From the IMG/VR virus record IMGVR_UViG_640753024_000005: a DNA stretch of 12,112 nucleotides. The stretch is one strand, 5' to 3'. Under the pieces are notes generated by a model. That model searched no databases. It saw only the letters and a list, made by a program, of their open reading frames with translations, and was not told the DNA's origin. Both the position numbers and the translations under genes were made by a program. Positions 1-12,112 of the stretch are shown piece by piece. The stretch's first letter is position 1, and each line of letters opens with the position of its first letter. The stretch is from a virus. Its lineage: Duplodnaviria; Heunggongvirae; Uroviricota; Caudoviricetes.

Positions 1-696
1 TCACTTAGGGTATGGCTGAACCCTGAATAGTTTGGTATTTAGCCGCTTCCTTGCTCGCTTGTTCAGGAATCTGATGTAGCGATACTGATTAAATTTGTGC
101 GCCACGGCACGCTCTTTATTAGCCCGTAAATACACGCCTCGTTGTCCACCCCGCTTAATCGCGTTCATCGTTATCTCGTGATACCACTCACCATCCAGCT
201 CGTAGAACGTGCTTTCATGGCTGCCAATAAAATCAAAATTCGACGCCTGATACACAACGCCTGCGCGTCCGCAGCGTTCGTCAGCAAATGACTGAACCCA
301 CTCCACTGACGGATACAGTAATCTGATAACTTTCAGCGCGTAGCTGATGGCCCGTGATTCAGAGTTGCGGGGCATGTCGTCGTGTAGCCACATGCGATTC
401 AACTCCATATAGCCCCGGTTATCCGTTTCAAGCACGACACGACGACCTGAGTTGGGGTTAAGGGCATATCCCCACTGGAGAACGCCAACCAGATCGCGTC
501 CGCTGAATACTCCCAGGTGGAGGTAAGAGTTATTCACAAAACGGCGGGAATAGTGCTTTGTCTGAATAATTGTGCGGGCCAGCCAGCAGGATATGGTTTC
601 AACGCGCAGTTCCTTTGAACCATAGCCAACAATCTGGCCTTCATACTCAATAACGCACGGTTTCGTCAGAATGCGTGATTTTTTCTCTTTTCCCAC
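1..696 (-). CDS. mom: Mom DNA-modification protein; proposed GTG start at 696-694 giving 231 aa (alternative upstream ATG at 726-724 gives the 241-aa ORF in the track)
   Basis: ORF-track protein recognised as Mu Mom from memory. It sits at the extreme right end next to com and gin, as in Mu. A GGAG (707-704) lies 7 nt upstream of the GTG. The 231-aa length matches my recollection of Mu Mom; start choice is uncertain. Confidence 0.85.
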
Positions 697-835
697 AATG
701 TTTCTCCGTGGGATGCTCGCAGGCATTCAGCATTATGATGTGACGTTTGCAACGCGGACACCTGATTTCAATGTGATCAAAGGAATCCGCCTTAAATAAC
801 AGTTTGTTGCAGTTTTTACAGCGAATTGATTTCAT
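647..835 (-). CDS. com: Com, zinc-finger translational activator of mom (62 aa)
   Basis: 62-aa ORF with a CxxC...CxxC arrangement (CKNC ... CPRC). Strong AGGAGG 4 nt upstream of the ATG. Its 3' end overlaps the mom 5' end by about 50-80 nt. Size and position match Mu com. Confidence 0.9.
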
Positions 836-946
836 CTCACCTCCTTTGCATCAATTCGCCACTATCTTAAAAAACATCGTGGGTTGAGTGTGGTTATTGG
901 GGCATAATCGATCTGTATTACCGATCGATTCAATTGATTCGATCGT
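836..946 (-). promoter_or_regulatory. mom operon promoter/regulatory region: three GATC (Dam) sites, T6 tract adjoining a TAAGAT -10-like hexamer
   Basis: GATC at 910-913, 923-926 and 941-944, spaced 13 and 18 bp, two within CGATCG palindromes. A6 run at 869-874 (T6 on the mom sense strand) abuts a TAAGAT hexamer (864-869 reverse complement). In Mu, Pmom is repressed by OxyR at unmethylated GATCs and activated by C protein. Exact -35 and C-site not resolvable by eye. Confidence 0.6.
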
Positions 947-1511
947 CGTTTTCTATATGCGTTCGTTTGGCGGGGTGTTTTTTATACAGCGTTGACAGGG
1001 CCACATCGTAGATCAATGCGACCTGCTTGCGGGGGATTCCTTGTGCTAATAAACGCCCGGCCTGCTCCCATTCCGCTTTGGTTAGTTTAGGTGGTCGCCC
1101 ACCGATACGGCCTTTATTTCTGGCAGCAGCAAGTCCAGCCATCGTTCTCTCGATGATTAGTTCTCGTTCCATCTCAGCCAGGGCACCCATAACGTGGAAG
1201 AAAAAACGCCCCATTGGAGATGACGTATCAATACTGTCAGTAAGACTGCGAAAATTAATCCCTCGCTCTCGTAATTCCCCTACGAGAGAAATCAAATGTT
1301 TCATGCTTCGCCCGAGGCGATCCAGTTTCCAGACAACCAGTGTGTCACCTTTTTGAAGACGCTTTAAAGCGCGTTTTAATCCAGGTCTGTCTGTCCTTGT
1401 TCCGCTTAATTTATCTTCAAATATTTGTTCACATCCTGCACAAACAAGAGCGTTTCGTTGCAGGTCTGTATTCTGGTCATTTGTTGATACCCTTACATAG
1501 CCAATCAGCAC
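930..1511 (-). CDS. gin: Gin serine DNA invertase (193 aa), GTG start with GGGAG Shine-Dalgarno
   Basis: Protein begins MLIGYVRVSTNDQ with the catalytic Ser of the resolvase/invertase family and has a C-terminal HTH region. It lies directly next to an invertible segment flanked by gix-like repeats. Start codon is GTG (1511-1509). Confidence 0.95.
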   Translation of the reverse strand: MLIGYVRVSTNDQNTDLQRNALVCAGCEQIFEDKLSGTRTDRPGLKRALKRLQKGDTLVVWKLDRLGRSMKHLISLVGELRERGINFRSLTDSIDTSSPMGRFFFHVMGALAEMERELIIERTMAGLAAARNKGRIGGRPPKLTKAEWEQAGRLLAQGIPRKQVALIYDVALSTLYKKHPAKRTHIENDDRIN

Positions 1512-1565
1512 TCTGGATCTCCCGTTTAAAAGCGCAAATCATGCCATGCAGGCCGGAAACAGCCA

Positions 1566-1599
1566 TTATCTAAAACCTCGGTTTACAGGAAACGGTAAA
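1566..1599. repeat. gix recombination site, right copy (34-bp inverted repeat; 26-bp core 1566-1591)
   Basis: ttatctaaaacctcggtttacaggaaacggtaaa equals the reverse complement of 4504-4537 at 33/34 positions. The core has the 12-2-12 architecture of Gin/Hin sites, with central dinucleotide at 1578-1579. Confidence 0.9.
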
Positions 1600-2530
1600 T
1601 CAGGCTTCTGGTGCGTTGCAGAAAAACCAGAATGGCGCAGATATTCCAAACAAAGATAAATTTACGCAAACAATAGGTGCTTGCCGCTCTTTTCATGGTG
1701 CTATTAGCACAGGTGCAGGAAACTGGACGACGGCACAATTGATTGAATGGCTGGATTCTCAAGGGGCATTCAATCACCCATACTGGATGTGCAAATGTTC
1801 ATGGTCATACGGCAATAATAAAATTATTACCGATACTGGCTGTGGAACTATTCATCTTGCAGGTTGCGTTATTGAGGTTATGGGTAATAAAGGAGCCATG
1901 ACCATCCGTGTAACCACCCCGAGCACTTCCAGCGGTGGCGGAATTACTAACGCTCAATTCACCTATATTAATCATGGTGATGCTTATGCTCCTGGCTGGC
2001 GACGAGACTACAACACGAAAAACCAGCAGTCTGCATTTGCTTTAGGGAAAACAGGAGGCACTGTCGGAAATGATAAAGCTGTTGGCTGGAACTGGAATAG
2101 CGGGGTCTATAACGCAAATATTGGTGGCGCAACGACATTAATCCTCCATTTCAATATGAGCGAGGGGAGTTGCCCTGCCGTACAGTTCCGTGTGAATTAT
2201 AAGAACGGCGGTATTTTTTATCGTTCAGCACGTGATGGTTATGGCTTTGAAGCTAACTGGTCAGAGTTTTACACCACAACACGCAAACCCTCTGCGGGAG
2301 ATGTTGGTGCATATACGCAGGCAGAATGTAACTCAAGGTTTATTACAGGTATTCGCCTTGGCGGTCTGTCATCTGTTCAGACATGGAATGGTCCTGGCTG
2401 GTCTGACAGGTCAGGTTATGTCGTTACAGGTTCAGTTAACGGAAACCGTGATGAATTAATTGATACAACTCAGGCAAGGCCAATTCAGTATTGCATTAAT
2501 GGAACGTGGTATAACGCGGGGAGTATTTAA
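1574..2530 (+). CDS. Sv', silent alternative variable part of tail fibre S (no start codon of its own in this orientation)
   Basis: Open frame begins right after the TAA at 1571-1573 inside gixR and runs to TAA at 2528-2530. C-terminus (NGNRDELIDTTQARPIQYCINGTWYNAGSI) is paralogous to the S C-terminus. The TTG start in the ORF track (1616) is not a real initiator. Confidence 0.7.
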   Translation, partial: NLGLQETVNQASGALQKNQNGADIPNKDKFTQTIGACRSFHGAISTGAGNWTTAQLIEWLDSQGAFNHPYWMCKCSWSYGNNKIITDTGCGTIHLAGCVIEVMGNKGAMTIRVTTPSTSSGGGITNAQFTYINHGDAYAPGWRRDYNTKNQQSAFALGKTGGTVGNDKAVGWNWNSGVYNANIGGATTLILHFNMSEGSCPAVQFRVNYKNGGIFYRSARDGYGFEANWSEFYTTTRKPSAGDVGAYTQAECNSRFITGIRLGGLSSVQTWNGPGWSDRSGYVVTGSVNGNRDELIDTTQARPIQYCINGTWYNAGSI

Positions 2531-2532
2531 TT

Positions 2533-2598
2533 ATGATGCACTTAAAAAATATTACTGCTGGCAACCCTAAAACAAAAGAGCAATACCAGCTAACGGAA
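2533..2598. repeat. Internal inverted repeat inside the G segment (U' 5' end), partner at 3557-3622
   Basis: First 66 nt of U' and U are 64/66 identical in inverted orientation. A further 23/24-nt identical block follows (about 2638-2661 versus about 3500-3522). Confidence 0.85.
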
Positions 2599-3066
2599 CG
2601 ATTTAACATCAAATGGCTTTATACAGAGGATGGGAAGAACTGGTATGAGGAACAAAAGAACTTTCAGCCTGATACGTTGAAAATGGTCTATGACCACAAC
2701 GACGTTATTATTTGTATTGAAAAGGATGTTTCAGCAATTAATCCAGAAGGCGCAAGCGTCGTTGAATTACCTGATATTACAGCAAATCGCCGGGCTGATA
2801 TTTCGGGTAAATGGATGTTCAAGGATGGCGTAGTGATAAAGCGAACTTACACCGAGGAAGAACAGAGGCAGCAGGCAGAGAATGAAAAGCAAAGCCTGTT
2901 GCAACTTGTCAGGGATAAAACCCAGTTATGGGACTCACAGCTACGGCTGGGCATCATTTCCGACGAGAATAAACAAAAATTAACAGAGTGGATGCTCTAT
3001 GCGCAGAAAGTCGAATCTACAGACACCTCCAGCCTGCCAGTAACGTTTCCAGAACAACCAGAATGA
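2533..3066 (+). CDS. U', silent alternative tail-fibre assembly protein (177 aa)
   Basis: Starts [22 protein letters not shown], identical to the N-terminus of U on the other strand. Conserved ANRRAD motif. GGGAG upstream of the ATG. Confidence 0.8.
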   Translation: MMHLKNITAGNPKTKEQYQLTERFNIKWLYTEDGKNWYEEQKNFQPDTLKMVYDHNDVIICIEKDVSAINPEGASVVELPDITANRRADISGKWMFKDGVVIKRTYTEEEQRQQAENEKQSLLQLVRDKTQLWDSQLRLGIISDENKQKLTEWMLYAQKVESTDTSSLPVTFPEQPE

Positions 3067-3094
3067 GACAAGGCCCGCTATCGGGCCTTAATTT

Positions 3095-3622
3095 TTATTC
3101 AGGCTTTTGTGGCCATTCAGGATTTGCCGTATCCACACGGCTGACCAGAACACTGTAGCGCTCCCATGCTTCCAGTCGGCTACGCTCCTCATCTGTTGCC
3201 ATGTTCAGCCTGACAGCGCGTTCCAGTGGCTGAATAACGCTTTCTGCTTCAGAAAGCAACGCGGCCTTTTGTGATTCGGCCTGTTGTTGCAGTTCCTGTT
3301 CTGTATATTCCCTCTTTACTACTTTACCATACAGAAACATCCATTTTCCGTTATTGTCTGCGCGACGATTTGCCGTAATATCAGGAACTTCAACTATGCT
3401 TAGCCCTTCAGGATTAATAGTTGAAACGTCTTTACTGACAGCAACGATGATGTTGTTCTCATCGTAAGCAATTTTTATGGTGTCTGGCTGAAAATTCTTT
3501 TGTTCCTCATACCAGTTTTTGCCATCTTCGCAAAAGAGCCATACCACGCCCGCTTTTTCAGTTAGCTGGTATTGTTCTTTTGTTTTAGGGTTGCCAGCAG
3601 TAATATTTTTTAAGTGCATCAT
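3095..3622 (-). CDS. U: U tail-fibre assembly protein (175 aa from the MMHLK start)
   Basis: Paralogue of U'. The ATG at 3622 lies 1 nt after the S stop (3624-3626). The 12 extra N-terminal residues in the track's 187-aa ORF overlap S and are not credited. Confidence 0.85.
3557..3622. repeat. Internal inverted repeat inside the G segment (U 5' end), partner at 2533-2598
   Basis: See partner entry. Confidence 0.85.
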
Positions 3623-3623
3623 C

Positions 3624-5033
3624 TTAAACACTCCCCACGTTGTACCATATTCCCCCAATCAATTTCTGAATTGGCCTTCTGGCAACAGTGTCGACAAGAT
3701 CATCCGCATTGCCGTTAATTGCGGCTGTTAAAACATAACCTGACGCATCGCCAAAGCCGTAGTCGCGCCATACGTTTTTATATTCAATGCTGCCAAGACG
3801 AATATCCCGAACGACATGATTATGCAGCCATGTGCTTAACCAGTTGTTTCCCCACACTGAACCATAAATATCGCCACTAGACGCAACTTGCGCACCACTT
3901 CCCAGCGCAAATCCCCCATCTGTTTTAAAAATGAAATCACCACCACCATCTGAACCGTTATTAATATGAACACCATCACCACCGTTATCTTTCCACAAAA
4001 ACATACGAATACTTCCGTCTTCGTTGGTGAATGTAATGTGGTGGCGGTAATTACTTTTTAATCTAAAAGCGCTGCAATTAGATTCAATATCTTTATAAAG
4101 ATGTAATCCTAACCCATCAATATGTCCGATGCGCGAACCATTTGAATAGAAGCTAATAATACCATCTCCATCTTGCCTAAATCCGGTGTCGTTATCTCCC
4201 AGAACAATGGAGTTTTCACCCAGTGCGTTATCAGTAGCACCAATAGCTAGACCTCCTTCAATTTTGGCCCCGTGGCTGACATATATAGCACCTGTTCTTA
4301 GATTTATAGCGAATGGCCTTAATGGGCCGATATCACCGTTTTCGCCTTGTCCTTCAGCCGTAGGGATGAAATGAAGGGACTCTTCTGAACGGCGGAAAAT
4401 AAGACCGAAGGCATCATTAAAAATTCGCAGCGCATTCATCGTTCCAATTTTCAGTTCTCCGGTCATTTTATCGCCGGAACGCTGAACGGCGTTACCAGCC
4501 TTGTTTACCGTTTCCTGTAAACCGAGGTTTTGGATAAACAGCGGCTTATTGGGAATATCTGCTCCGTTCCGGTCTTTTGCCAGACGGGCATTGGCATTAT
4601 CCATCGCAATTTTCACCGCTTTTGCGGTGGCTGCCAGCGTTTCACTGGGGCTGTCAGTGGCACTGGTTAGCTGAACGAGTCCTTTTTTGTTCAGGCTGGC
4701 ATCATAGATATCCAGATTTTCACGTGCTGTACGCTGTGCTGATGCCCCGGCAGTTTTAATTTCGCTGAGGTTATTTTTTATCAGCAGCGCGTTATTGCTC
4801 ATAATGGCTTTAATGGACAGTGCAAGCTGGTTTAATTTTGTTTTATCCGGTTGAATACCGGCTTCTTCCAGCGTGTTTAATAACTCCGCCTGCACAATAT
4901 TAAACCAGTCCATGCCGGGCCATGTGATAACATTATTCCCGTCACCTTCTGAAAACCAGCGAACGATAGCACTACGCTGGGCGGATACGGGCGGCATGAT
5001 GGTTACGCCGCTGTCGTTATCAATATAAAACAT
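3624..5033 (-). CDS. S: Tail fibre protein S (469 aa): constant part Sc (5033-4538), gix-encoded linker, variable part Sv (4503-3624)
   Basis: Long ORF crossing gixL in frame, with gly-rich fibre-like repeats in the variable part and a conserved C-terminal motif shared with Sv'. Its ATG overlaps the stop of the upstream gene (TAATG at 5035-5031). Confidence 0.9.
4504..4537. repeat. gix recombination site, left copy (34-bp inverted repeat; 26-bp core 4512-4537), embedded in the S reading frame
   Basis: Core ttcctgtaaaccgaggttttggataa with central GA at 4524-4525. In the S frame it encodes [12 protein letters not shown]. Confidence 0.9.
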
Positions 5034-5575
5034 TAGTTATCTCCGTCATGGTAAACAAATTTATAAATCTGATGCGCGGGTTTATATTTCTCCAGTAAAC
5101 ATTCCAGCGCACCCGATTCATAAACACGTAACGGCGTCAGAACATTATCCAGCACCGTTGCGTTGCGATAATTTTTAATACCGTAAATATTGACCTGCGT
5201 AACCCACTGGCCTTCTGTGGAATCCGTCAGCCTGACGGTAAAACCGTACTGCGCAGCCAGCCATTCATAAAAGCGCCGACTCAGATTGCCGGTCATACGC
5301 ATTTTATTCGCGGCAGCCCGCTGGCGTTCGGACAGGGTGCCGTTTTCGCTGGTACAGTCAGGCAACCCCAGAAATGATTCCCACTCCCCCAGATACCAGC
5401 GGGATGTGGACGGGAAACGCTCCCGCAGCATTTGCCGCGCATCATCCGCCGCAGCGGCAATCACGTCGCTGATGGCCTGCGCCAGCGCAGATAATTTGCT
5501 GTCGGGGCTTTTATTCCAGGCAAGCCCTGACGGCAGTAATTGCAGAAAGGCCGTCTGATAGGGTGTTACAGCCAT
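5033..5575 (-). CDS. R: Baseplate wedge protein, Mu gp48 equivalent (180 aa)
   Basis: Position immediately upstream of S and exact length match to Mu gp48. Overlaps the W stop by 10 nt. Assigned by synteny and size, not by a recognised motif. Confidence 0.75.
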   Translation of the reverse strand: MAVTPYQTAFLQLLPSGLAWNKSPDSKLSALAQAISDVIAAAADDARQMLRERFPSTSRWYLGEWESFLGLPDCTSENGTLSERQRAAANKMRMTGNLSRRFYEWLAAQYGFTVRLTDSTEGQWVTQVNIYGIKNYRNATVLDNVLTPLRVYESGALECLLEKYKPAHQIYKFVYHDGDN

Positions 5576-6648
5576 TCAATTGTCCCCGGTGTTAACAGTT
5601 CCGTATTCTCCGAACGCTGGATCTCTGTCGGGAAACGCACTTCAAAATCATCCAGACCGGTAACACCTGCCACCGCACGGATAATACGGGAGGGGGCAAG
5701 TGCGCCGCCCGGCGTCACCTCATTAAAAAACATGGTATTAATGGCGTGAGTAATAGCCTGTTTCAGTTCGGCTGTCTTCGGTGATATATAAATCCGTGGA
5801 TTTACCGGCTTTGCCTTTGCCGCAAATACCGTGACATTTACACCATCAGGCTGTCCGACAATCAGACCAGTGATCGGGTCAGTATGACCGGCGATATAAT
5901 CCGCCACGCGTTCCACGTCTGCCGGTTGTGGAAAAATATTGCTCCGGTTATCCATAACAAACGTCACCCCGACTGTGCCACCGCCTTTCCATGTCGGAAA
6001 ACACCAGGCACGGGTAACGCCGCTGACTTCACGCGCCCAGCGAACATAATCAAACTGATTACCGCCGAACGGAGGATACTGGACACGATATTCCAGCCGT
6101 GACAGCAGCTCCGCTGCACTCTCAATATCAGCCCCACCGGAAAACCCTTTTACAGTGATGGCATCGGAAACAACACAGGCAACCGGGGTGATCAACGTTA
6201 AAAGGGTATTCTCACCGGTATTTCCTGCCTCACCGGCAGCCAGTGCGGTAACGGTAATTTCCGTCGTTCCTGCACGGTCAATCACAATGGCATCAGCCAG
6301 GCTGTAAACCACACCATCAGCACGCTGCCAGCGTGTACCGGCAGGAATGGTGGTCGCTGCCGATGTGGTGACAGTCAGCGGGCCGCTGGCGGCTGTCGCC
6401 TGTTTGCGGCGCACGCCCCAGAACCGGCAGTGCTCCAGCAACTCATCTTCATCTGCTGTCGACGGGATAATCTGCCGTCCAACCCATGAAATATGCTCGT
6501 GACAACCGGCAGCAAGGCCCGCCTGAGCATAAGCAATGGCACTCAGCGTTTTTTCACGGGCCTGAGGCCAGCTACCCGGCAGGCGCTGTTCAATATTCTG
6601 TTCTGTACGGGCAATCAGCGATGATAATGTCGGTGGTGAATAAGCCAT
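5566..6648 (-). CDS. W: Baseplate protein, Mu gp47 equivalent (360 aa)
   Basis: Synteny and exact length match to Mu gp47. Directly abuts the preceding gene (6649/6648). Confidence 0.75.
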   Translation of the reverse strand: MAYSPPTLSSLIARTEQNIEQRLPGSWPQAREKTLSAIAYAQAGLAAGCHEHISWVGRQIIPSTADEDELLEHCRFWGVRRKQATAASGPLTVTTSAATTIPAGTRWQRADGVVYSLADAIVIDRAGTTEITVTALAAGEAGNTGENTLLTLITPVACVVSDAITVKGFSGGADIESAAELLSRLEYRVQYPPFGGNQFDYVRWAREVSGVTRAWCFPTWKGGGTVGVTFVMDNRSNIFPQPADVERVADYIAGHTDPITGLIVGQPDGVNVTVFAAKAKPVNPRIYISPKTAELKQAITHAINTMFFNEVTPGGALAPSRIIRAVAGVTGLDDFEVRFPTEIQRSENTELLTPGTIEWL

Positions 6649-7086
6649 TTAAACCCCGTTAAATGCTGCTTTAAACTCATAAGGAATAACGGAACCATCC
6701 GGTAATGTCAGTGCAATGTAGAGGTATAACCAGCCCTGATGTAACTGTTCCGCTCTGACGTTAATCGCACTTACCCGGCCCGCTGTTTTCAGCCATTCCA
6801 GCGCCTCTTCGGCATACCCTCTGGCGCGTTCCAGCGTATCCGGTGTGGCTTTTTCACGTGATAACAGCCACAACCGCGAACCGATGGGGCGGTCGCGGTA
6901 ACTGTCACCCCACCATCCACGGCGATCATCTGAACCATCCGGCAGCGTGTCAGAATCCAGCGCGCGCCGGTCTGTAAACAGGGAGATTGTCACATCGGTT
7001 GTCAGGCTGTCGTCGGTCAGCATGTCAATGCCATCCTGTGCAATATCGCCGCGTCCGTTCGTCCAGATAATGGCTAAATCGGTCAT
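6649..7086 (-). CDS. V: Baseplate protein, Mu gp46 equivalent (145 aa)
   Basis: Synteny and length. ATGA start/stop overlap with the upstream gene at 7086-7083. Confidence 0.75.
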   Translation of the reverse strand: MTDLAIIWTNGRGDIAQDGIDMLTDDSLTTDVTISLFTDRRALDSDTLPDGSDDRRGWWGDSYRDRPIGSRLWLLSREKATPDTLERARGYAEEALEWLKTAGRVSAINVRAEQLHQGWLYLYIALTLPDGSVIPYEFKAAFNGV

Positions 7087-7676
7087 TGCATTGGCCCCGT
7101 GGTTCCGCCGCTGTCGCCACGGTGGATATGCTTATCCGTCGATTTGCCATTGATGATGGCATCCGGGGCAGTAATATTGCTGTCGAACTGGCTTTTACCT
7201 TTAACGCCCAGACCTTTCTGGATCTCAACGTCGCCGGTAAACGTGGTTCTGGGTGTGTCAACGGTCATACTTTCATCAGCGTAAACCTCAACCGTTTTAC
7301 AGGTAATGATGCAGCGTCCGTCCTTTGTCAGCCGGATACGATGCCCCTCATGGTGGTAAATGCCTGCATCACCCGGTTCAAGATTTGTCGGGCGGTAGCG
7401 GCGGTCTTCCACCACAACGGCGATCCCCTGATCACGTTGTGCACCCACACAGGCAATCAGCGCCTCTGCGCCCGGCAGGGGAACGCTGAAATGTCCGTAA
7501 TTTTGCAGGCGCTCCACTTCATCGGATTCCTCATCATCCAGCAGACCGACCTGCAGGTTCTGAACCTTTCGCCCGTCGTTAATCACGTTAACAACAGCGC
7601 GCGCAAGCATCAGGCGCACACGACGCATCAGCGGCGTCAGCAGGCGGTTCAGGGCGGAATCATTTACTCTTTCCAC
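7083..7676 (-). CDS. Q: Baseplate central spike, Mu gp45 equivalent (197 aa)
   Basis: Synteny and length. His-rich C-terminal tip (KHIHRGDSGGTTGPMQ) fits a metal-binding spike apex. Overlaps the P stop by 13 nt. Confidence 0.75.
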   Translation of the reverse strand: MERVNDSALNRLLTPLMRRVRLMLARAVVNVINDGRKVQNLQVGLLDDEESDEVERLQNYGHFSVPLPGAEALIACVGAQRDQGIAVVVEDRRYRPTNLEPGDAGIYHHEGHRIRLTKDGRCIITCKTVEVYADESMTVDTPRTTFTGDVEIQKGLGVKGKSQFDSNITAPDAIINGKSTDKHIHRGDSGGTTGPMQ

Positions 7677-8803
7677 GGCGGCGTTTTCTCCGGGTGTCTG
7701 CGATAATAATCTTCAACCAGCGCATCAATACCGCCGTTACTGTCGCCGCCTTTCCTGTTTTTACGGTCGCTTTCAACCGGCACCAGAAAGCCTTCGCGTG
7801 GTGCAAGGCTGACGCGGGTTTTCAGCCCGTCCTGGTCATTCAGTATCAGGGTGACTTTGCTGGCCAGTAATTCCGTGGTTTTGATGGCATATTTCGAGGC
7901 ATCAATAGTGACCAGCAGGTTCGGCATCCAGAGTTGCCCGTCCTTGCGAGTCCATCCGTCAATTTCAGCCTCAAAGGTGATGGATTTTGCCAGTCTGCGG
8001 CGTTGCTCACGCAGGGCGCGGGCCTGTGCATCCTTCGCCGTAATTTTGCTGTCGGCAATGATGATCATCGGTCTGTAACGGGTCACATCACTGTCAGTGG
8101 CGGTCCCTTTCCGGGAGACGATACTTTTCGCATCAATATCATCACCCTCAGCACCGTTTGCGCGGGCATACCCCTTGACGGTGTATTCGCTGAACCGGTC
8201 GCGGAAGTCTTCCTCAAAATCCAGTGTCAGCAGATTTTCTCCGAGAACCAGCTCATCAGTGGCTGTGCTGGCAGCCCGGCTGAATACCAGCTCTCCGGCG
8301 GCATTGCTGGTCATCAGTACACCGCGTGCGCGGGAGGCACGCACCAGCGCCTCATAAACGGTTTCTGAATGGTCCAGCGTGAAGCCGGGAAAAGCTGCCG
8401 AACTTTCCTTATCGGAAAGCTCCCAGCGAACGGTAACGCCATAAGGGGTGCACAGGTCACGCGCAATCTGCTCCAGTGTGCGGTTTTTCCACTGTCCGCC
8501 ACTGTAAACGGCAGCACAGTCAATCAGGTCAGCCGTTTTGTCACGTCCGGCGACAGTGATTTTCATACTGTCAGCGGTCATCTGGCGTCGCCGTGAATCG
8601 ATATAACCGGTGCAGACAATCTGCCCCCCGATTTCGAGCGTGAACGCCTTCCCCGGTGCCAGCCCGGATAAATCCGTGCCCGGTGGCACGTTCACCCCCA
8701 GCTCAAAATATCCGGCTACGGATTCAATGGAGCGGGTGACAGAGACTGACGTCCAGCCGGTAAAAAGCCTGCCATCCGTTCGCAGCGTGACGGTATTACT
8801 CAT
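7664..8803 (-). CDS. P: Baseplate hub protein, Mu gp44 equivalent (379 aa)
   Basis: Synteny and exact length match to Mu gp44. ATG at 8803-8801 preceded by GAGGTG and overlapping the stop of the B'-remnant fusion ORF. Confidence 0.75.
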   Translation of the reverse strand: MSNTVTLRTDGRLFTGWTSVSVTRSIESVAGYFELGVNVPPGTDLSGLAPGKAFTLEIGGQIVCTGYIDSRRRQMTADSMKITVAGRDKTADLIDCAAVYSGGQWKNRTLEQIARDLCTPYGVTVRWELSDKESSAAFPGFTLDHSETVYEALVRASRARGVLMTSNAAGELVFSRAASTATDELVLGENLLTLDFEEDFRDRFSEYTVKGYARANGAEGDDIDAKSIVSRKGTATDSDVTRYRPMIIIADSKITAKDAQARALREQRRRLAKSITFEAEIDGWTRKDGQLWMPNLLVTIDASKYAIKTTELLASKVTLILNDQDGLKTRVSLAPREGFLVPVESDRKNRKGGDSNGGIDALVEDYYRRHPEKTPPWKE

Positions 8804-9146
8804 TAATCACCTCAATACTGACACCACCGGGAACAAACAACGGGTTGCCACATACAACAGCAATACTTTCAGTCAGGCTGGCAAAACGCATACTTGTCCA
8901 GATTTGTTTTACCGTCTGCGTTTCCACAAAGCGGGGCGGTTCAGGTAGTTCTGCAACTGCATGATATTTTTCCAGCCAGCGTTGCAGCATTTGTGAAACA
9001 CGCTCGTTATCCCCGTTGTACTTATCATTGATAAAACTACTGATAGTTCCGGTAGAAAGTCCGCTCTCAAGAGCAATTTGTTTAAAGGTGGTTTCTTCAT
9101 TTTCTACAAGCGTGCGCAGTCCTGCGCGAATATCGGAAATATTCAT
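8796..9146 (-). pseudogene. B: Truncated B (target-DNA activator, AAA+ ATPase): residues 1-102 retained, fused in frame to a 14-codon remnant (LFVPGGVSIEVINE) that I infer to be the 3' end of gene N
   Basis: ORF starts MNISDIRAGLRTLVENEETTFKQIALESGL, recognised as the Mu B N-terminal domain from memory. Homology stops at ...VVCGNP (8849-8841), exactly where Walker A (GNPGVGKT) should continue. The ORF ends 14 codons later, overlapping the P start. Confidence 0.85.
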
Positions 9147-9184
9147 CTGAATAACCTCGTAATTAAATTTTGTTTAAACGTTAA

Positions 9185-11173
9185 TTAAATGGCTTTTTTA
9201 CGTCTGTTCTGTTCCAGAATATCCAGCGAATGATTCAGATATTCATCACGCTCAGTTTCGTATTCATCATCACGCTCCTGATTCTTCACCCGTTCCGTAT
9301 TACCGGAAGGCCGGAAAATGCCGACAATTCGTGATTCTGGTGCTTCAGGTTCGGCTATCTGCGGCAGCAGCTCTGCCACTTCCAGTGCATCCATTTGTTT
9401 TTGTGCCTTAATCGCTGCTTTCGTCGCAGATTTCAGTTGTTTCTGGCGGCGGCGATATTCACGGCCTGCCGCAGCATCATTAAACGCAACAGGTGCCAGA
9501 CATTCCGCTTCACAGATAAACCGACCGTCCAGGGTGTAGCAATAAACCGTGCTGTGTAACTGCTGTGGATCAAATCTGACCACAACTTTTTTCACTCCGG
9601 CATTCATTAACGCCATGTTGTAATAAACGTTTTTCGCACCTTTAAGGGAGCCGCCAACTTTAAGCGCGAACTCGCCTTTACGTGAAACGTTCACCGCCTC
9701 GGCAGGCAGTAACAGCATCCGTTTTTGCTCTTCGGTAGGCTTACGCACAATCGTTCTGGCGTATTCACGCTCAAAAACGTCATCAAACGAAAGTTTGCCT
9801 CCGCACATTTCTGTTTCACGGCCTGTTCTGGCATTGAACATCGCCACACCTTCGGCAAGGGTTTTCAGAAACAGCTCTGCATCAACAGCGCGGTCGCCAT
9901 AGTTATCAGGTTTTGCCTGCGGATTTGGCCCCGTATATGCGCCAGCCAGTGCCGGATGCTTATCAACGTATTCCTCAAGCCCACCAACACCGAAAGCACG
10001 TTCAACAGGTTTTGCCTGGCCCCAGCCTTTACCGGCAACAACGCTTGTCCAGTGCATTTTCGCGCCCATCAGTAAAAACAGTCCCTTTGGATCGTCCTCT
10101 TTTACCTTAAAGCGGTAACGATTGGGCGCGCCCCCCGTCAGCCATTTATTCGCTGCACCACGGGTGTTATCAATGGTGATGTGAAAATCCTCCGGGATGC
10201 CGTAGCGTGTCACCACATCCATAAACGAGAGGCGAATTGAGTCGATGTTCTCGCTTACATCGCAGCGCCAGCCCAGAATTTTTCGGGTTTTCACATCCTG
10301 CCAGAACCATGTTTTCGGGCGGATCACATCACCGTTAAACCAGCGTACAAAGACGTTATGCAGATAACCGTCGCCGTTGATCCACTGCATGGCGTCCAGG
10401 TGTTCCACAGTTCGCTGCTGTGCCGGTATCAGATGCATCAGTGCATGTTCACCTTCACGACAGGCAACAACCATTGCCTCGTCCAGTTGCTGAATCCGGC
10501 GAAAGGCCGTGGCACGGGAGGGAATACTCCAGCCATGCTCGCGGGCTGCCAGTTCCAGACGCTCATAACATTTGCGGAAGGCGGGCTTTTCCGGTCGCAG
10601 ATAATCTGCAATCAGAAACTGCCAGGCATCCTCGTCAAATTCACTTTTGTGAACGTTGCGACGGGATGCACCACGTCCATCAACAAGCGCAGCCGCCCAG
10701 TCAGGCTTCGCAAACTTCTGTACCTGGTAATACTTGTCCCGCAAAGTGGATGCGCTGACCTGGTAATGCCCAGCAACGGTCGCAAAAGCCGTTTTTGTTG
10801 AAATCCCCTGGTTCAGCATTTCGTCTGCAGCCTGAACCGCAGGCAACCATTTTTCAGCAAGTCTGCGCTGGGAATCGCTGGCGTTATCCCATTTGCTCCA
10901 CAGTGCCTCACGATCATAATCATGGGCTTCCAGCGTGGGGCGGGCGATTTCAAAATACCCCTGACTTGTTTCAATTCTCCCTTGTTGCAACAGAATTTCA
11001 GCACGTAATGCGACAGGGAATGATTTGATATTGAATTCAAATGATACACCTTTAGTCCCTGCAACCTGCCTGAACTCCCAGCCTTCTCTTTGTGCCTTAC
11101 GTGTAATGTTAGTGGCTTGCTTTGGTAAACCTGCCAAACCGAGCAACTCTTTTGCTGTATACCATTCTTTCAT
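9185..11173 (-). CDS. A: DDE transposase A (662 aa), apparently intact
   Basis: Recognised from memory as near-identical to MuA from about residue 65 onward. Catalytic DDE contexts present ([40 protein letters not shown]). N-terminal 60-65 residues differ from MuA as recalled and resemble the c repressor N-terminus. Confidence 0.95.
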
Positions 11174-11180
11174 AGCGCAC

Positions 11181-11402
11181 CTAGTATCGAGACGGCCAAA
11201 TATCTTGCGGTGTCATTCCCAGTGCATCTGCAATGATTTTCTCCGCTTTCGGATATCTCTTATCCAAAGCATTTTTCAATGTTGAAGACGAAAGATGATT
11301 AGATCTTCCCAATTCAGCTAGTGACATATTGCGTTTTCGTAGCTCTGCAACGATGTCAGCTCTGTGCCAATCTTGGCGGTTAGTTCTTTTATTCATATGC
11401 AT
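11181..11402 (-). CDS. ner: Ner-family early regulator (73 aa; possible start at the third Met, 11396)
   Basis: Small basic HTH protein with the DWHRADI...LSSSTL...IWPSRY signature shared by phage Ner and E. coli Nlp. Sits between the operator region and A. Looks D108-type rather than Mu-type from memory. Confidence 0.85.
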
Positions 11403-11587
11403 TTCATGTAATCCTTTCAGATTCCCCCGTGAGCTACGCTATAAAGTAGCTCACGGCATATCGTGCAATGTAGTGTGGAATCACTCTCAAATCAATAGGG
11501 ATTTGAAAGGATTTGCCATGATTTCATATAACGGCATGATTTTTATATGAATTTATTTTGTCTCTATTGAAATCACTAGGATTTTAA
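11403..11587. promoter_or_regulatory. Divergent early (Pe, leftward) and repressor (Pc, rightward) promoter/operator region
   Basis: 185-bp AT-rich intergenic region between divergent ner and c. Candidate leftward elements: TTGCAC (11463-11468 rc), 17 bp, TTTATA (11440-11445 rc), or TTGATT/TACATT further upstream. Candidate rightward elements: TTGAAA (11503-11508), 18 bp, TATAAC (11527-11532). All weak matches, unverified. Confidence 0.5.
11427..11456. promoter_or_regulatory. Perfect inverted repeat, likely Ner operator: ccgtgagctac - 8 bp (gctataaa) - gtagctcacgg
   Basis: 11-bp arms at 11427-11437 and 11446-11456 are exact reverse complements with an AT-rich 8-bp spacer, 25 bp upstream of the ner start. 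Matches my recollection that D108 Ner binds 11-bp inverted repeats. Confidence 0.6.
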
Positions 11588-12112
11588 ATGATGTCTTTTG
11601 AAATCAAAGAATGGTTTAATGCGAAAGAGCTGGAAGGGATGCCTGGTGTACCAAAGTTGGCGACTAACATTACCAGGAAAGCTGTGGCGGAAGATTGGGT
11701 AAAACGTCAGCGTCACGGTGGGAAAGGTGTCGCTTATGAGTATCACATCAACAGTCTGCCAGAAGAAACACGCAGGGCCATTAAAGGTGCCTCACTTTCT
11801 GATAAACCAGTGCATACATCAATCGCCCATACAGTTGATGAGAGGCTAATTTATGCAATGAGCTTTTTAACACCAGATGAGCAGGCCGCAGCTGTGGAGA
11901 TCATTCGTGTAGCAGGGATTAAAGGACTTATGCCTACAATTGTCAGTAAAGATAAGGCATTAGAGGCATTAGGGATTACTGTGGAGCAACAGAAAACCCT
12001 GCAAACTCTTCAAGCATTACCACCGGAAAAAGTAAGAGAGATTTTGTCTCAGTATGAAGGCAAAGAACATAATTTCCCTGTAAGAGAAAACGATGTAAAG
12101 AAAGCTGTATAA
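11588..12112 (+). CDS. c: c repressor (174 aa), immunity repressor of the transposable phage
   Basis: Divergent from ner-A across the operator region. Its N-terminal region is about 50% identical to the A N-terminal domain (shared [16 protein letters not shown]), the known repressor/transposase paralogy in Mu-like phages. Confidence 0.8.
   Translation: MMSFEIKEWFNAKELEGMPGVPKLATNITRKAVAEDWVKRQRHGGKGVAYEYHINSLPEETRRAIKGASLSDKPVHTSIAHTVDERLIYAMSFLTPDEQAAAVEIIRVAGIKGLMPTIVSKDKALEALGITVEQQKTLQTLQALPPEKVREILSQYEGKEHNFPVRENDVKKAV

Follow-up and report, generated by a model that had tools for sequence, protein, structure and literature searches.

Laboratory mini-Mu elements are internally deleted forms of Mu in which both ends are kept and A, with or without B, is provided in cis or in trans (see also PMC3145075 and PMC5847225). 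A natural Mu-like remnant has its place at torZ in E. coli E94 and E92. In E94 this remnant shows several separate deletions and an IS5 element lying between A and B; gpT, P, gp48 and mom survive as gene fragments, and B is full-length. Mu 'X' mutants, attributed to Bukhari in 1975, are reportedly survivors of the induction of thermoinducible lysogens with lesions in or near B, and are said to be able to excise. Here we analysed a stretch of 12,112 nucleotides (the window; positions below refer to it unless stated otherwise), which very probably represents the inner part of an internally deleted Muvirus mu prophage of 12,566 bp in ssuA, a recent, strain-specific product of decay. The ends and the enhancer/operator region were kept and internal lytic and morphogenetic genes were deleted, which is what defines a mini-Mu.

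Like laboratory mini-Mu, the element has both ends with their MuA-binding sites, the enhancer/operator, the repressor and A in cis, and it has lost lytic and morphogenetic functions, with a helper expected to be needed for packaging. Unlike laboratory mini-Mu, it is of natural origin, formed in a wild strain through a single microhomology deletion, has D108-type immunity and no selectable marker, contains a B that is truncated rather than cleanly absent, and carries 9 kb of baseplate and fibre genes together with gin, com and mom. Its gene order, ends and 5-bp target duplication are those of Mu, D108 and the full-length prophages of FDAARGOS_1058, W and SE11. The torZ remnant, likewise a natural Mu-like prophage, is reduced to about 10 kb and keeps some of the baseplate block besides c, ner and A, but in comparison to the several lesions of E94 the element has one clean deletion and no other lesion.

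The window was identical to the reverse complement of a segment of the chromosome of enterotoxigenic E. coli (ETEC) E24377A (CP000800.1) that extends from the stop codon of mom to the stop codon of c. The host gene hit was ssuA. The element continues beyond the window for 339 bp at its left end (past position 12112) and for 115 bp at its right end (before position 1). Thus, the preliminary description of positions 1-12112 as a mini-Mu-like element was correct in gene content, but the window does not include the two ends. In the CP000800.1 flanks the termini were of Mu type (TG…CA), reading TGTATTGATTCAC… and …GCGCCGCTTCA, and GCCGA abutted each of them as a 5-bp target duplication just outside the window. 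Six matches to the MuA-binding consensus had the canonical L1-L3/R1-R3 layout, all outside the window, at positions 6706, 6811 and 6851 (left end) and 19190, 19213 and 19235 (right end) of the locus L001; over the whole locus nine consensus matches were observed where 3.5 were expected. Sites L1-L3 were identical to D108, as were left-end nucleotides 1-54 (the region of the pac site), and the last 79 nt were identical to Mu. When the element and one GCCGA copy were removed in silico, the ssuA ORF became intact again. Next to the element came ssuE-ssuA at one end and ssuD at the opposite end, with no head or tail genes just outside the window. The Mu-type ends and target duplication for which an inspection of the flanks had been proposed are therefore present. 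A 12,620-bp "Mu" at ssuA in E24377A was already tabulated in 2011, with no other Mu (PMC3032704, Additional file 4). The deletion may have taken place in ssuA, or it may have preceded the transposition of the element to this site.

By sequence comparison the immunity region, ner and the N-terminal region of A are of D108 type and not of Mu type, and the element combines this D108-type immunity with a Mu-type right end. The repressor c (11588-12112, + strand, 174 aa; PF02316, E 3e-51) was identical to D108 c in 172 of 174 residues and only 33% identical to Mu c. It is divergent from the ner-A-B early operon, which is the layout of Muvirus mu. The c-ner intergenic region (11403-11587) contains, by homology to D108, the operators/enhancer together with the early promoter and the repressor promoter, which diverge from each other; it was colinear with D108 865-1049 with seven mismatches, and differed by two from the full-length FDAARGOS_1058 prophage. 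The protein Ner (11181-11402, − strand, 73 aa; PF13693) was 100% identical to that of D108. The A transposase (9185-11173, − strand, 662 aa) also showed 100% amino acid identity to D108 A, the genes differing by 28 synonymous and no non-synonymous changes. Its DDE triad (D268/D335/E391) corresponds to D269/D336/E392 of MuA, and the Pfam domains HTH_Tnp_Mu_1, HTH_Tnp_Mu_2, DDE_2 and Mu-transpos_C cover the Iα/Iβ/Iγ DNA-binding region, the catalytic core and the C-terminal domain. Based on comparison with D108 and Mu, every protein kept in the element was full-length, in agreement with the preliminary description of c, ner and A with its DDE triad as intact.

The left block was colinear with D108 1-3610 (98.67%, no gaps) and the right block with D108 27692-32057 (98.7%), and D108 sequence between the two blocks had no match. 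One deletion is thus seen, by which 24,088 bp are absent relative to D108 (D108 3611-27698); the element also differs from D108 in lacking the right-end gene 56. The crossover (8845-8848) falls in a 4-nt microhomology, GCAA, with GCAAyCC present at both parental sites. Codon 102 of B was joined to the final 14 codons of N with the frame preserved, giving a 116-aa B'::'N fusion ORF (8796-9146, − strand) whose stop codon overlaps the start of P like the native N/P junction. The B' part, residues 1-102, was 100% identical to MuB (PDB 8xvb) and consists of the N-terminal domain (PDB 2mqk) and linker. The cut is exactly upstream of the Walker A motif, and the AAA+ target-capture ATPase of MuB is gone. 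A Pfam 'Death' domain was reported on B' at 21.9 bits, below the cut-off of 22.6, and was taken as spurious. The genes kil, gam, mor, C and lys were all missing from the window, as were the head genes, L, the tube gene and the tape-measure gene. The whole semi-essential early region, the sheath genes and N except for its last 14 codons were deleted as well, and the missing span takes in the early terminator as annotated, both mor and C, the site cut by gyrase (Mu 17879) and Pp, the late promoter (Mu 27287-27353). The losses previously reported, namely the ATPase domain of B and all activator, lysis, head, sheath/tube and tape-measure genes, are therefore explained by the D108 3611-27698 equivalent that the window lacks.

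The deletion would have been formed in one illegitimate recombination event, for example by slippage during replication or by microhomology-mediated end joining. Deletions promoted by MuA are known to have one of their endpoints at a Mu end. In this element both endpoints are internal and have only GCAA in common, and a transposase-mediated deletion was therefore rejected. Homologous recombination between two prophages was also rejected, as the overlap is just 4 nt.

Close full-length relatives are frequent in E. coli. One of them, the FDAARGOS_1058 prophage, had four mismatches to the left 3,610 nt of the element (99.9% identity over the left 3.6 kb), in comparison to 98.7% nucleotide identity to D108, both over this left part and over P-Sc. 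The full-length FDAARGOS_1058 prophage likewise combines a left end like that of D108 with a right end like that of Mu, a further point against recombination between two prophages as the origin of the deleted form. A protein identical to the element's A was found in 1,408 collection blocks; among the matches listed, ten in number, all ten loci had a full-length B, at ten different host sites. The deleted form was rare. In a collection of 5,426 complete E. coli genomes, without E24377A, no genome had one locus covering at least 80% of the window, and the exact junction sequence had no match in three public contig collections (genome, viral and metagenome). By exact protein look-up the B'::'N fusion was present on two contigs only, that of E24377A and one SRA contig, which was assembled independently and was 100% identical over 10,893 nt with the same junction and host flank. 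Our literature search returned no paper combining E24377A with D108, and a Pseudomonas helper-satellite paper and a review of 'grounded prophages' gave nothing specific.

As the architecture is like that of an engineered mini-Mu, we considered a laboratory construct, or an assembly artefact in which a full-length prophage had been collapsed. However, this is extremely unlikely. The second, independent assembly has the same junction and flank, and the element, with its target duplication, is chromosomal in a wild isolate of ETEC. It diverged from laboratory Mu and D108 by about 1.3% in the left block and in P-Sc and by about 9% in U-mom, the variable region of S differs from both, and the window contains no marker or vector sequence. 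With this divergence and no marker the laboratory construct was rejected, and since the element differs by 1-9% from laboratory Mu and D108 depending on the region, it is natural, as had been proposed.

To the right of the junction the baseplate genes follow on the − strand. These are P (gp44, baseplate hub, 7664-8803, 379 aa; 375 of 379 residues identical to Mu and to D108), gp45 (Q, spike, 7083-7676, 197 aa; 100% identical to Mu), gp46 (V, wedge, 6649-7086, 145 aa; 100%), gp47 (W, baseplate J-like, 5566-6648, 360 aa; 359 of 360 identical to D108) and gp48 (R, wedge, 5033-5575, 180 aa), the five (5033-8803) being 98.9-100% identical to Mu/D108. The tail fibre S (3624-5033, − strand, 469 aa; Phage_fiber_2, gp37_trimer) was only 59% identical to D108 overall. 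The G segment contains the variable part of S but not the constant part, and this variable part was unlike that of Mu or D108. The fibre assembly protein U (3095-3622, − strand, 175 aa) was 82% identical to Mu/D108 U. A GC-rich hairpin between U and U' (3070-3089) matches the bidirectional terminator annotated in D108. On the + strand U', the alternative fibre assembly protein (2533-3066, 177 aa; 97%), and S', the alternative variable part of the fibre (1616-2530; 87%), were detected; S' lacks a start codon, and inversion would join it to the constant part of S. The serine invertase Gin (930-1511, − strand, 193 aa; Resolvase, HTH_7) was identical to Mu Gin in 192 of 193 residues. The two gix sites, one inside S (4497-4537, left boundary) and one adjoining gin (1566-1606, right boundary), form a 41-nt inverted repeat with 93% complementarity and 2,890 nt between the arms. 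A serine invertase, inverted gix bounds and two sets of fibre tip and chaperone (Sv-U and S'-U') together make this a G segment.

Between gin and com, the region of the mom promoter, in which GATC sites are clustered (836-929, − strand), had one mismatch to Mu. The genes com (647-835, − strand, 62 aa; 100%, Zn_ribbon_Com) and mom (1-726, − strand, 241 aa; 239 of 241 identical to Mu Mom, PF25680, E 2e-75) overlap, com being upstream, and the window begins at the mom stop codon. The activator C of the mom promoter (D108 10012-10434) falls in the deleted span, and because C is absent mom is presumably silent. Both com/mom and gin with its two gix sites were thus correctly named as intact at the outset. 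The same description listed a complete P-Q-V-W-R-S-U block; this is valid for the coding sequences, but with Pp and C lost the P-U block is no longer an independently regulated module.

In E24377A the repressor would keep the element silent. On derepression, transcription from the early promoter would give Ner, A and the B'::'N stub and then continue into P-U, which would now sit downstream of A in the early operon. This read-through is proposed solely because no recognisable intrinsic terminator lies between; promoter and terminator scans of the element gave hits no more numerous than in shuffled sequence, and a single strong hairpin was seen, that between U and U'. With kil, B and the lysis genes absent, the host would survive derepression. 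Gin could still invert the G segment, without phenotypic effect, and the element would be unable to make particles. A Mu or D108 helper that superinfects could in principle package the element, starting from its left end, together with adjacent host DNA. It had been suggested earlier that an intact Mu-like prophage might complement the element in trans, but the published E24377A prophage table (PMC3032704) shows no second Mu-like prophage, so that complementation in trans would need superinfection.

As read from the retained genes and sites, the element is a natural A+ B− mini-Mu whose mobility is plausible. Without MuB, A could by itself bring about transposition, and rarely excision, at approximately 1% of the wild-type efficiency, and the missing gyrase site might lower this further; with both the strong gyrase site and MuB gone, such transposition as occurs would be inefficient. 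Short mini-Mu substrates are not known to depend on the gyrase site. The element resembles the Mu X mutants in being A+ B−, in having both ends, in the loss of host-killing functions and in the rare A-dependent excision that is expected; X mutants, however, are mostly insertions in B with the rest of the genome kept, whereas this element has a 24-kb deletion. A B−/kil− lesion would be of the kind expected among survivors of prophage induction, and we offer as a conjecture that the element was selected by induction in the past.

It is also possible, although we find it doubtful, that the locus is an inert fossil that looks intact, is functionally dead, for example because A is silent or the ends are unable to synapse, and will erode. 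MuB and the gyrase site are both deleted, and a single copy is recorded in the E24377A genome (PMC3032704). The central gyrase site helps synapsis of the Mu ends, and its loss reduced end pairing approximately 30-fold even in a 17-kb Mu (PMC3820752). In contrast, c, ner, A, the operator region and the six end sites are without inactivating change, ΔMuB prophages still transpose at approximately 1% of wild type according to the literature, and in vitro the gyrase site is dispensable for ends separated by about 2 kb (PMC3820752).

At the other extreme, the deletion could by accident have made a self-sufficient, non-lethal, repressor-controlled transposon that needs only A, with the early promoter also driving the baseplate and fibre operon. 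We regard this as very unlikely. If true, low-frequency movement and persistence in natural E. coli would be possible, a superinfecting Mu- or D108-type phage could co-package the element and adjacent host DNA (a natural 'mini-muduction'), and the divergent tail-fibre tips could enter the particles of the helper. It would also be a natural route from a transposable phage to a plain transposon or a satellite.

That the element is instead being maintained, as a helper-dependent satellite or as a domesticated module, with the ends, transposase, immunity, baseplate/fibre genes, gin and mom retained by selection, is very unlikely. Helper Mu packages mini-Mu elements, and packaging in Mu-like helpers, the donation of alternative tail fibres and superinfection immunity for the host are possible benefits. 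All retained genes are intact, B'::'N keeps both frame and native N/P overlap, and the repressor would give D108-type immunity. However, the intactness of the genes is accounted for by recent origin, with four mismatches in 3.6 kb to a full-length relative, and an in-frame fusion arises by accident in one of three cases. The baseplate and fibre genes are without Pp and C, and no helper is found in the same genome according to the published table. Phage satellites, such as those of the P4 and PICI types, are recognised by a conserved reduced architecture recurring in many genomes and by dedicated helper-exploiting functions. This combination was not seen here: the junction is limited to one strain and one identical contig, and no genes beyond those inherited from Mu/D108 were present in the window. 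The E94 remnant, messier and with several deletions, is typical of decay.

The element has consequences for the strain. The insertion interrupts ssuA and cuts off ssuDCB from the operon promoter, and E24377A is therefore likely to be defective in using aliphatic sulfonates as sulfur source. It should also be immune to D108-type phages. The current understanding of Mu is unchanged: the element is a tidy natural counterpart of laboratory mini-Mu, yet an ordinary product of prophage decay. It provides a clean record of how a transposable phage decays, in which one microhomology deletion took all host-killing and particle-forming functions and spared the transposition machinery.

Blastn comparison showed the window to be the exact reverse complement of positions 7035-19146 of L001, the locus of the E. 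coli E24377A chromosome (CP000800.1) that holds the element with its host flanks. The window spans from the stop codon of mom (w1, where w denotes window position) to the stop codon of c (w12112), and the element ends just outside both. The coincidence of the window edges with these codons is a product of window cutting and not biology, and because of this cut the diagnostic ends were hidden from the preliminary description. The element starts on the left with TGTATTGATTCACTTGAAGTACG at L001 6696 and terminates on the right with …GTGCGCCGCTTCA at L001 19261, which gives a length of 12,566 bp, and GCCGA directly abuts it at both ends. Nine matches to the MuA-site consensus were found in the 20-kb locus, compared to about 3.5 expected by chance, and no shuffle got to nine. 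Six of the nine were located within the two element ends in the canonical L1/L2/L3 and R3/R2/R1 layout. The L1-L3 sites have the D108 sequence and the last 79 nt the Mu sequence, both with no differences. The Mu-type ends expected of a mini-Mu-like element, namely TG…CA-type termini, MuA-binding sites and a 5-bp target duplication, are thus present. The element is flanked by the host genes ssuE and ssuA on its one side and by ssuD on its other, a fimbrial operon lying further out; no phage genes were found among the annotated neighbours, and hence no head or tail genes just outside the window.

In-silico removal of the element together with one GCCGA copy made the ssuA reading frame whole again. 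The insertion point lies after codon 293 of ssuA (the two parts being at L001 5815-6765 and 19262-19386), and the resulting chimeric ORF extends 23 codons into the Mu left end. With 12.6 kb now separating ssuDCB from the ssu promoter, aliphatic sulfonates may no longer serve E24377A as a sulfur source. The element was already catalogued in 2011 but unanalysed: in the E. coli W genome paper, Additional file 4 assigns E24377A a "Mu" mark at ssuA and has an entry ssuD-ssuA (1062064-1074683, 12,620 bp) whose coordinates match the element, and it gives no other Mu-type prophage for this strain (PMC3032704). In the sheet 'IE Sizes' the ssuA entry stands in the strain W row, while its coordinates and 'Mu' mark belong to E24377A, so the row was probably displaced. 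In the literature no paper was found describing the element as a mini-Mu.

Blastn further showed that the element is colinear with D108 1-3610 (98.67% identity, gapless) and then with D108 27692-32057 (98.7%), with 24,088 bp missing in comparison to D108. A three-way alignment placed the crossover within GCAA (w8845-8848), the parental sites being GGCAATCCT in B and AGCAACCCG in N. The reading frame is kept across the crossover: in the resulting B'::'N ORF (w8796-9146, 116 aa), residues 1-102 of B run into the 14 C-terminal residues of N (LFVPGGVSIEVINE). The stop codon of this ORF overlaps the start codon of P, an arrangement also seen at the native N/P junction. The B sequence ends immediately ahead of the Walker A motif (GNP|GVGKT), confirming the earlier suggestion that the ATPase domain is lost. 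The remaining 102 residues show no difference from MuB in PDB 8xvb and cover the N-terminal domain whose structure is 2mqk. Transposase-mediated deletion and homologous recombination between two prophages were both rejected, as the two endpoints are internal and have only 4 nt in common.

The contents of the deleted span were read from the D108 and Mu annotations. Its early part comprises the B ATPase, kil, gam, the rest of the early region, the early terminator, mor and C, and its late part the lysis genes, all head genes, the sheath, tube and tape-measure genes and most of N, in agreement with the preliminary description, which listed activator, lysis, head, sheath/tube and tape-measure genes as lost. 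The gyrase cut site (Mu 17879-17880) and the late promoter Pp (Mu 27287-27353) were also deleted, the right edge being at about Mu 27643. With Pp and C in the deleted span, the P-U genes are therefore intact yet without their promoter and its activator.

Based on the ORF list, pairwise comparison with D108 and Mu and Pfam scans, all the genes previously named as retained (c, ner, A, the P-U block, gin and com/mom) were present and full-length. On the plus strand, c (w11588-12112, 174 aa) matches D108 at 172/174 residues and is only 33% identical to Mu. On the minus strand, ner (w11181-11402, 73 aa) and A (w9185-11173, 662 aa) are 100% identical to D108, and P, gp45, gp46, gp47 and gp48 (w5033-8803) are 98.9-100% identical to Mu/D108. 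The DDE triad of A was located at D268/D335/E391, together with four Mu-transposase domains. Of the 28 nucleotide differences from D108 A, all are synonymous, which reflects divergence among working phages. Further minus-strand genes are gin (w930-1511, 193 aa, 192/193 to Mu), com (w647-835, 62 aa, 100%) and mom (w1-726, 241 aa, 239/241 to Mu), the promoter region of mom differing from Mu by a single base. Both gix sites were also verified, as a 41-nt inverted repeat (93% complementary, w1566-1606 and w4497-4537) bounding the G segment. That the element is an inert fossil is less likely, though plausible; no lesion was found in favour of it.

Within the fibre region, S (w3624-5033, minus strand, 469 aa, 59% identical to D108 overall) has a conserved constant part and a variable part (w3624-4497) unlike that of Mu or D108. 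U (w3095-3622, minus strand, 175 aa) is 82% identical to Mu/D108, and on the plus strand U' (w2533-3066, 177 aa) shows 97% and S' (w1616-2530, 304 aa) 87% identity. The expressed fibre tip and chaperone match those of other E. coli Mu-like prophages, e.g. in strain MIN10, and their DNA is about 88% identical to that of the invertible fibre segments found in phages P1, P7 and P88; this divergence is the usual host-range mosaicism. Of the 48 positions in the left 3.6 kb that differ from D108, seven are grouped in the c-ner intergenic region (w11445-11533), in a stretch of about 50 nt belonging to the operator region (3.8% divergence vs 1.3% on average). Because five of the seven are common to the Mu-like prophage of FDAARGOS_1058, they are a natural operator variant and not decay.

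Divergence of the element from D108/Mu is about 1.3% in conserved blocks and rises to about 9% in the U-mom block; its S variable region is a different one, and D108 gene 56 is lacking. Judged by its sequence, it is distinct from laboratory Mu and D108. The FDAARGOS_1058 prophage, inserted at yidA (NZ_CP065970.1, locus positions 2272-38018), was the closest full-length relative found, with four mismatches over the left 3,610 positions, one of which is the junction base. Its lysozyme gene is annotated as frameshifted. In the assembly collection, 1,408 blocks contained the identical A protein, and among the matches listed all ten A loci carried a 312-aa B with kil, gam and mor after it, each locus at a host site of its own. 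Among 5,426 complete E. coli genomes (a collection without E24377A itself) 88 had an A of this type, and none held 80% or more of the window at a single location. All 60 A-type loci among the matches listed adjoin a gene annotated as AAA ATPase, and in 14 of 14 pairable records the left-part and right-part hits were about 24 kb apart, as in full-length phage. An exact search did not find the junction string in three public contig collections. Exact matches to the B'::'N protein came from CP000800.1 (GCA_000017745.1) and one 10.9-kb contig from SRA run SRR9425412. This contig shows no difference over its full 10,893 nt, of which 2.9 kb is host flank, and therefore derives from this strain or one very closely related to it. 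Sequence divergence, target duplication and independent assembly exclude a laboratory construct or assembly artefact. A selected satellite or domesticated module, for which the intact genes and the in-frame fusion might be taken, is unlikely: the architecture occurs once, the published prophage table lists no helper in the genome, recent origin accounts for the intact genes, and chance alone would give a fusion in frame one time in three.

By sequence, the element still has intact cis sites, an intact c/operator/ner switch and an intact A, and it lacks MuB, kil, the lysis and morphogenesis functions, the gyrase site, Pp, mor and C. The D108-type repressor would hold the element silent and make the host immune to D108-type phages. 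Upon derepression, transcription from the early promoter would yield Ner, A and the B'::'N stub. It would probably run on through P-U, since the early terminator is gone and the one between U and U' (w3070-3089) is the sole convincing hairpin. In Mu, synapsis of the ends is aided by the central gyrase site; even when Mu is only 17 kb long, pairing drops about 30-fold once this site is deleted (PMC3820752). Transposition or excision of the element at low frequency is possible. The host would survive derepression and particles could not form. Gin could still flip the G segment, to no consequence, and mom would stay silent because C is absent, despite its nearly Mu-identical promoter region.

The mini-Mu-like interpretation was thus supported, and is refined by the D108-type repressor and the loss of Pp, C and the gyrase site. 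The element is a functional natural counterpart of laboratory mini-Mu elements and resembles Bukhari's X mutants, which are reportedly B-defective. It is a deletion derivative of Muvirus mu, lacking an intact MuB and morphogenesis. A second natural, strongly reduced Mu-like prophage of about 10.4 kb was observed in torZ of E. coli E94 (NZ_CP119740.1, locus positions 1400-11800) and E92 (NZ_CP119734.1). This remnant has c, ner, A, a full-length B, kil and gp45-47, with IS5 between A and B, and fragments of gpT, P, gp48 and mom, with several deletions. The element is alike in kind to this remnant and so not unique; Mu-like prophage decay by internal deletion also occurs in other E. coli strains. 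The joint loss of B, kil and lysis is what would be expected for induction survivors, and we conjecture that the element is a survivor of prophage induction. It represents clean but ordinary prophage decay.
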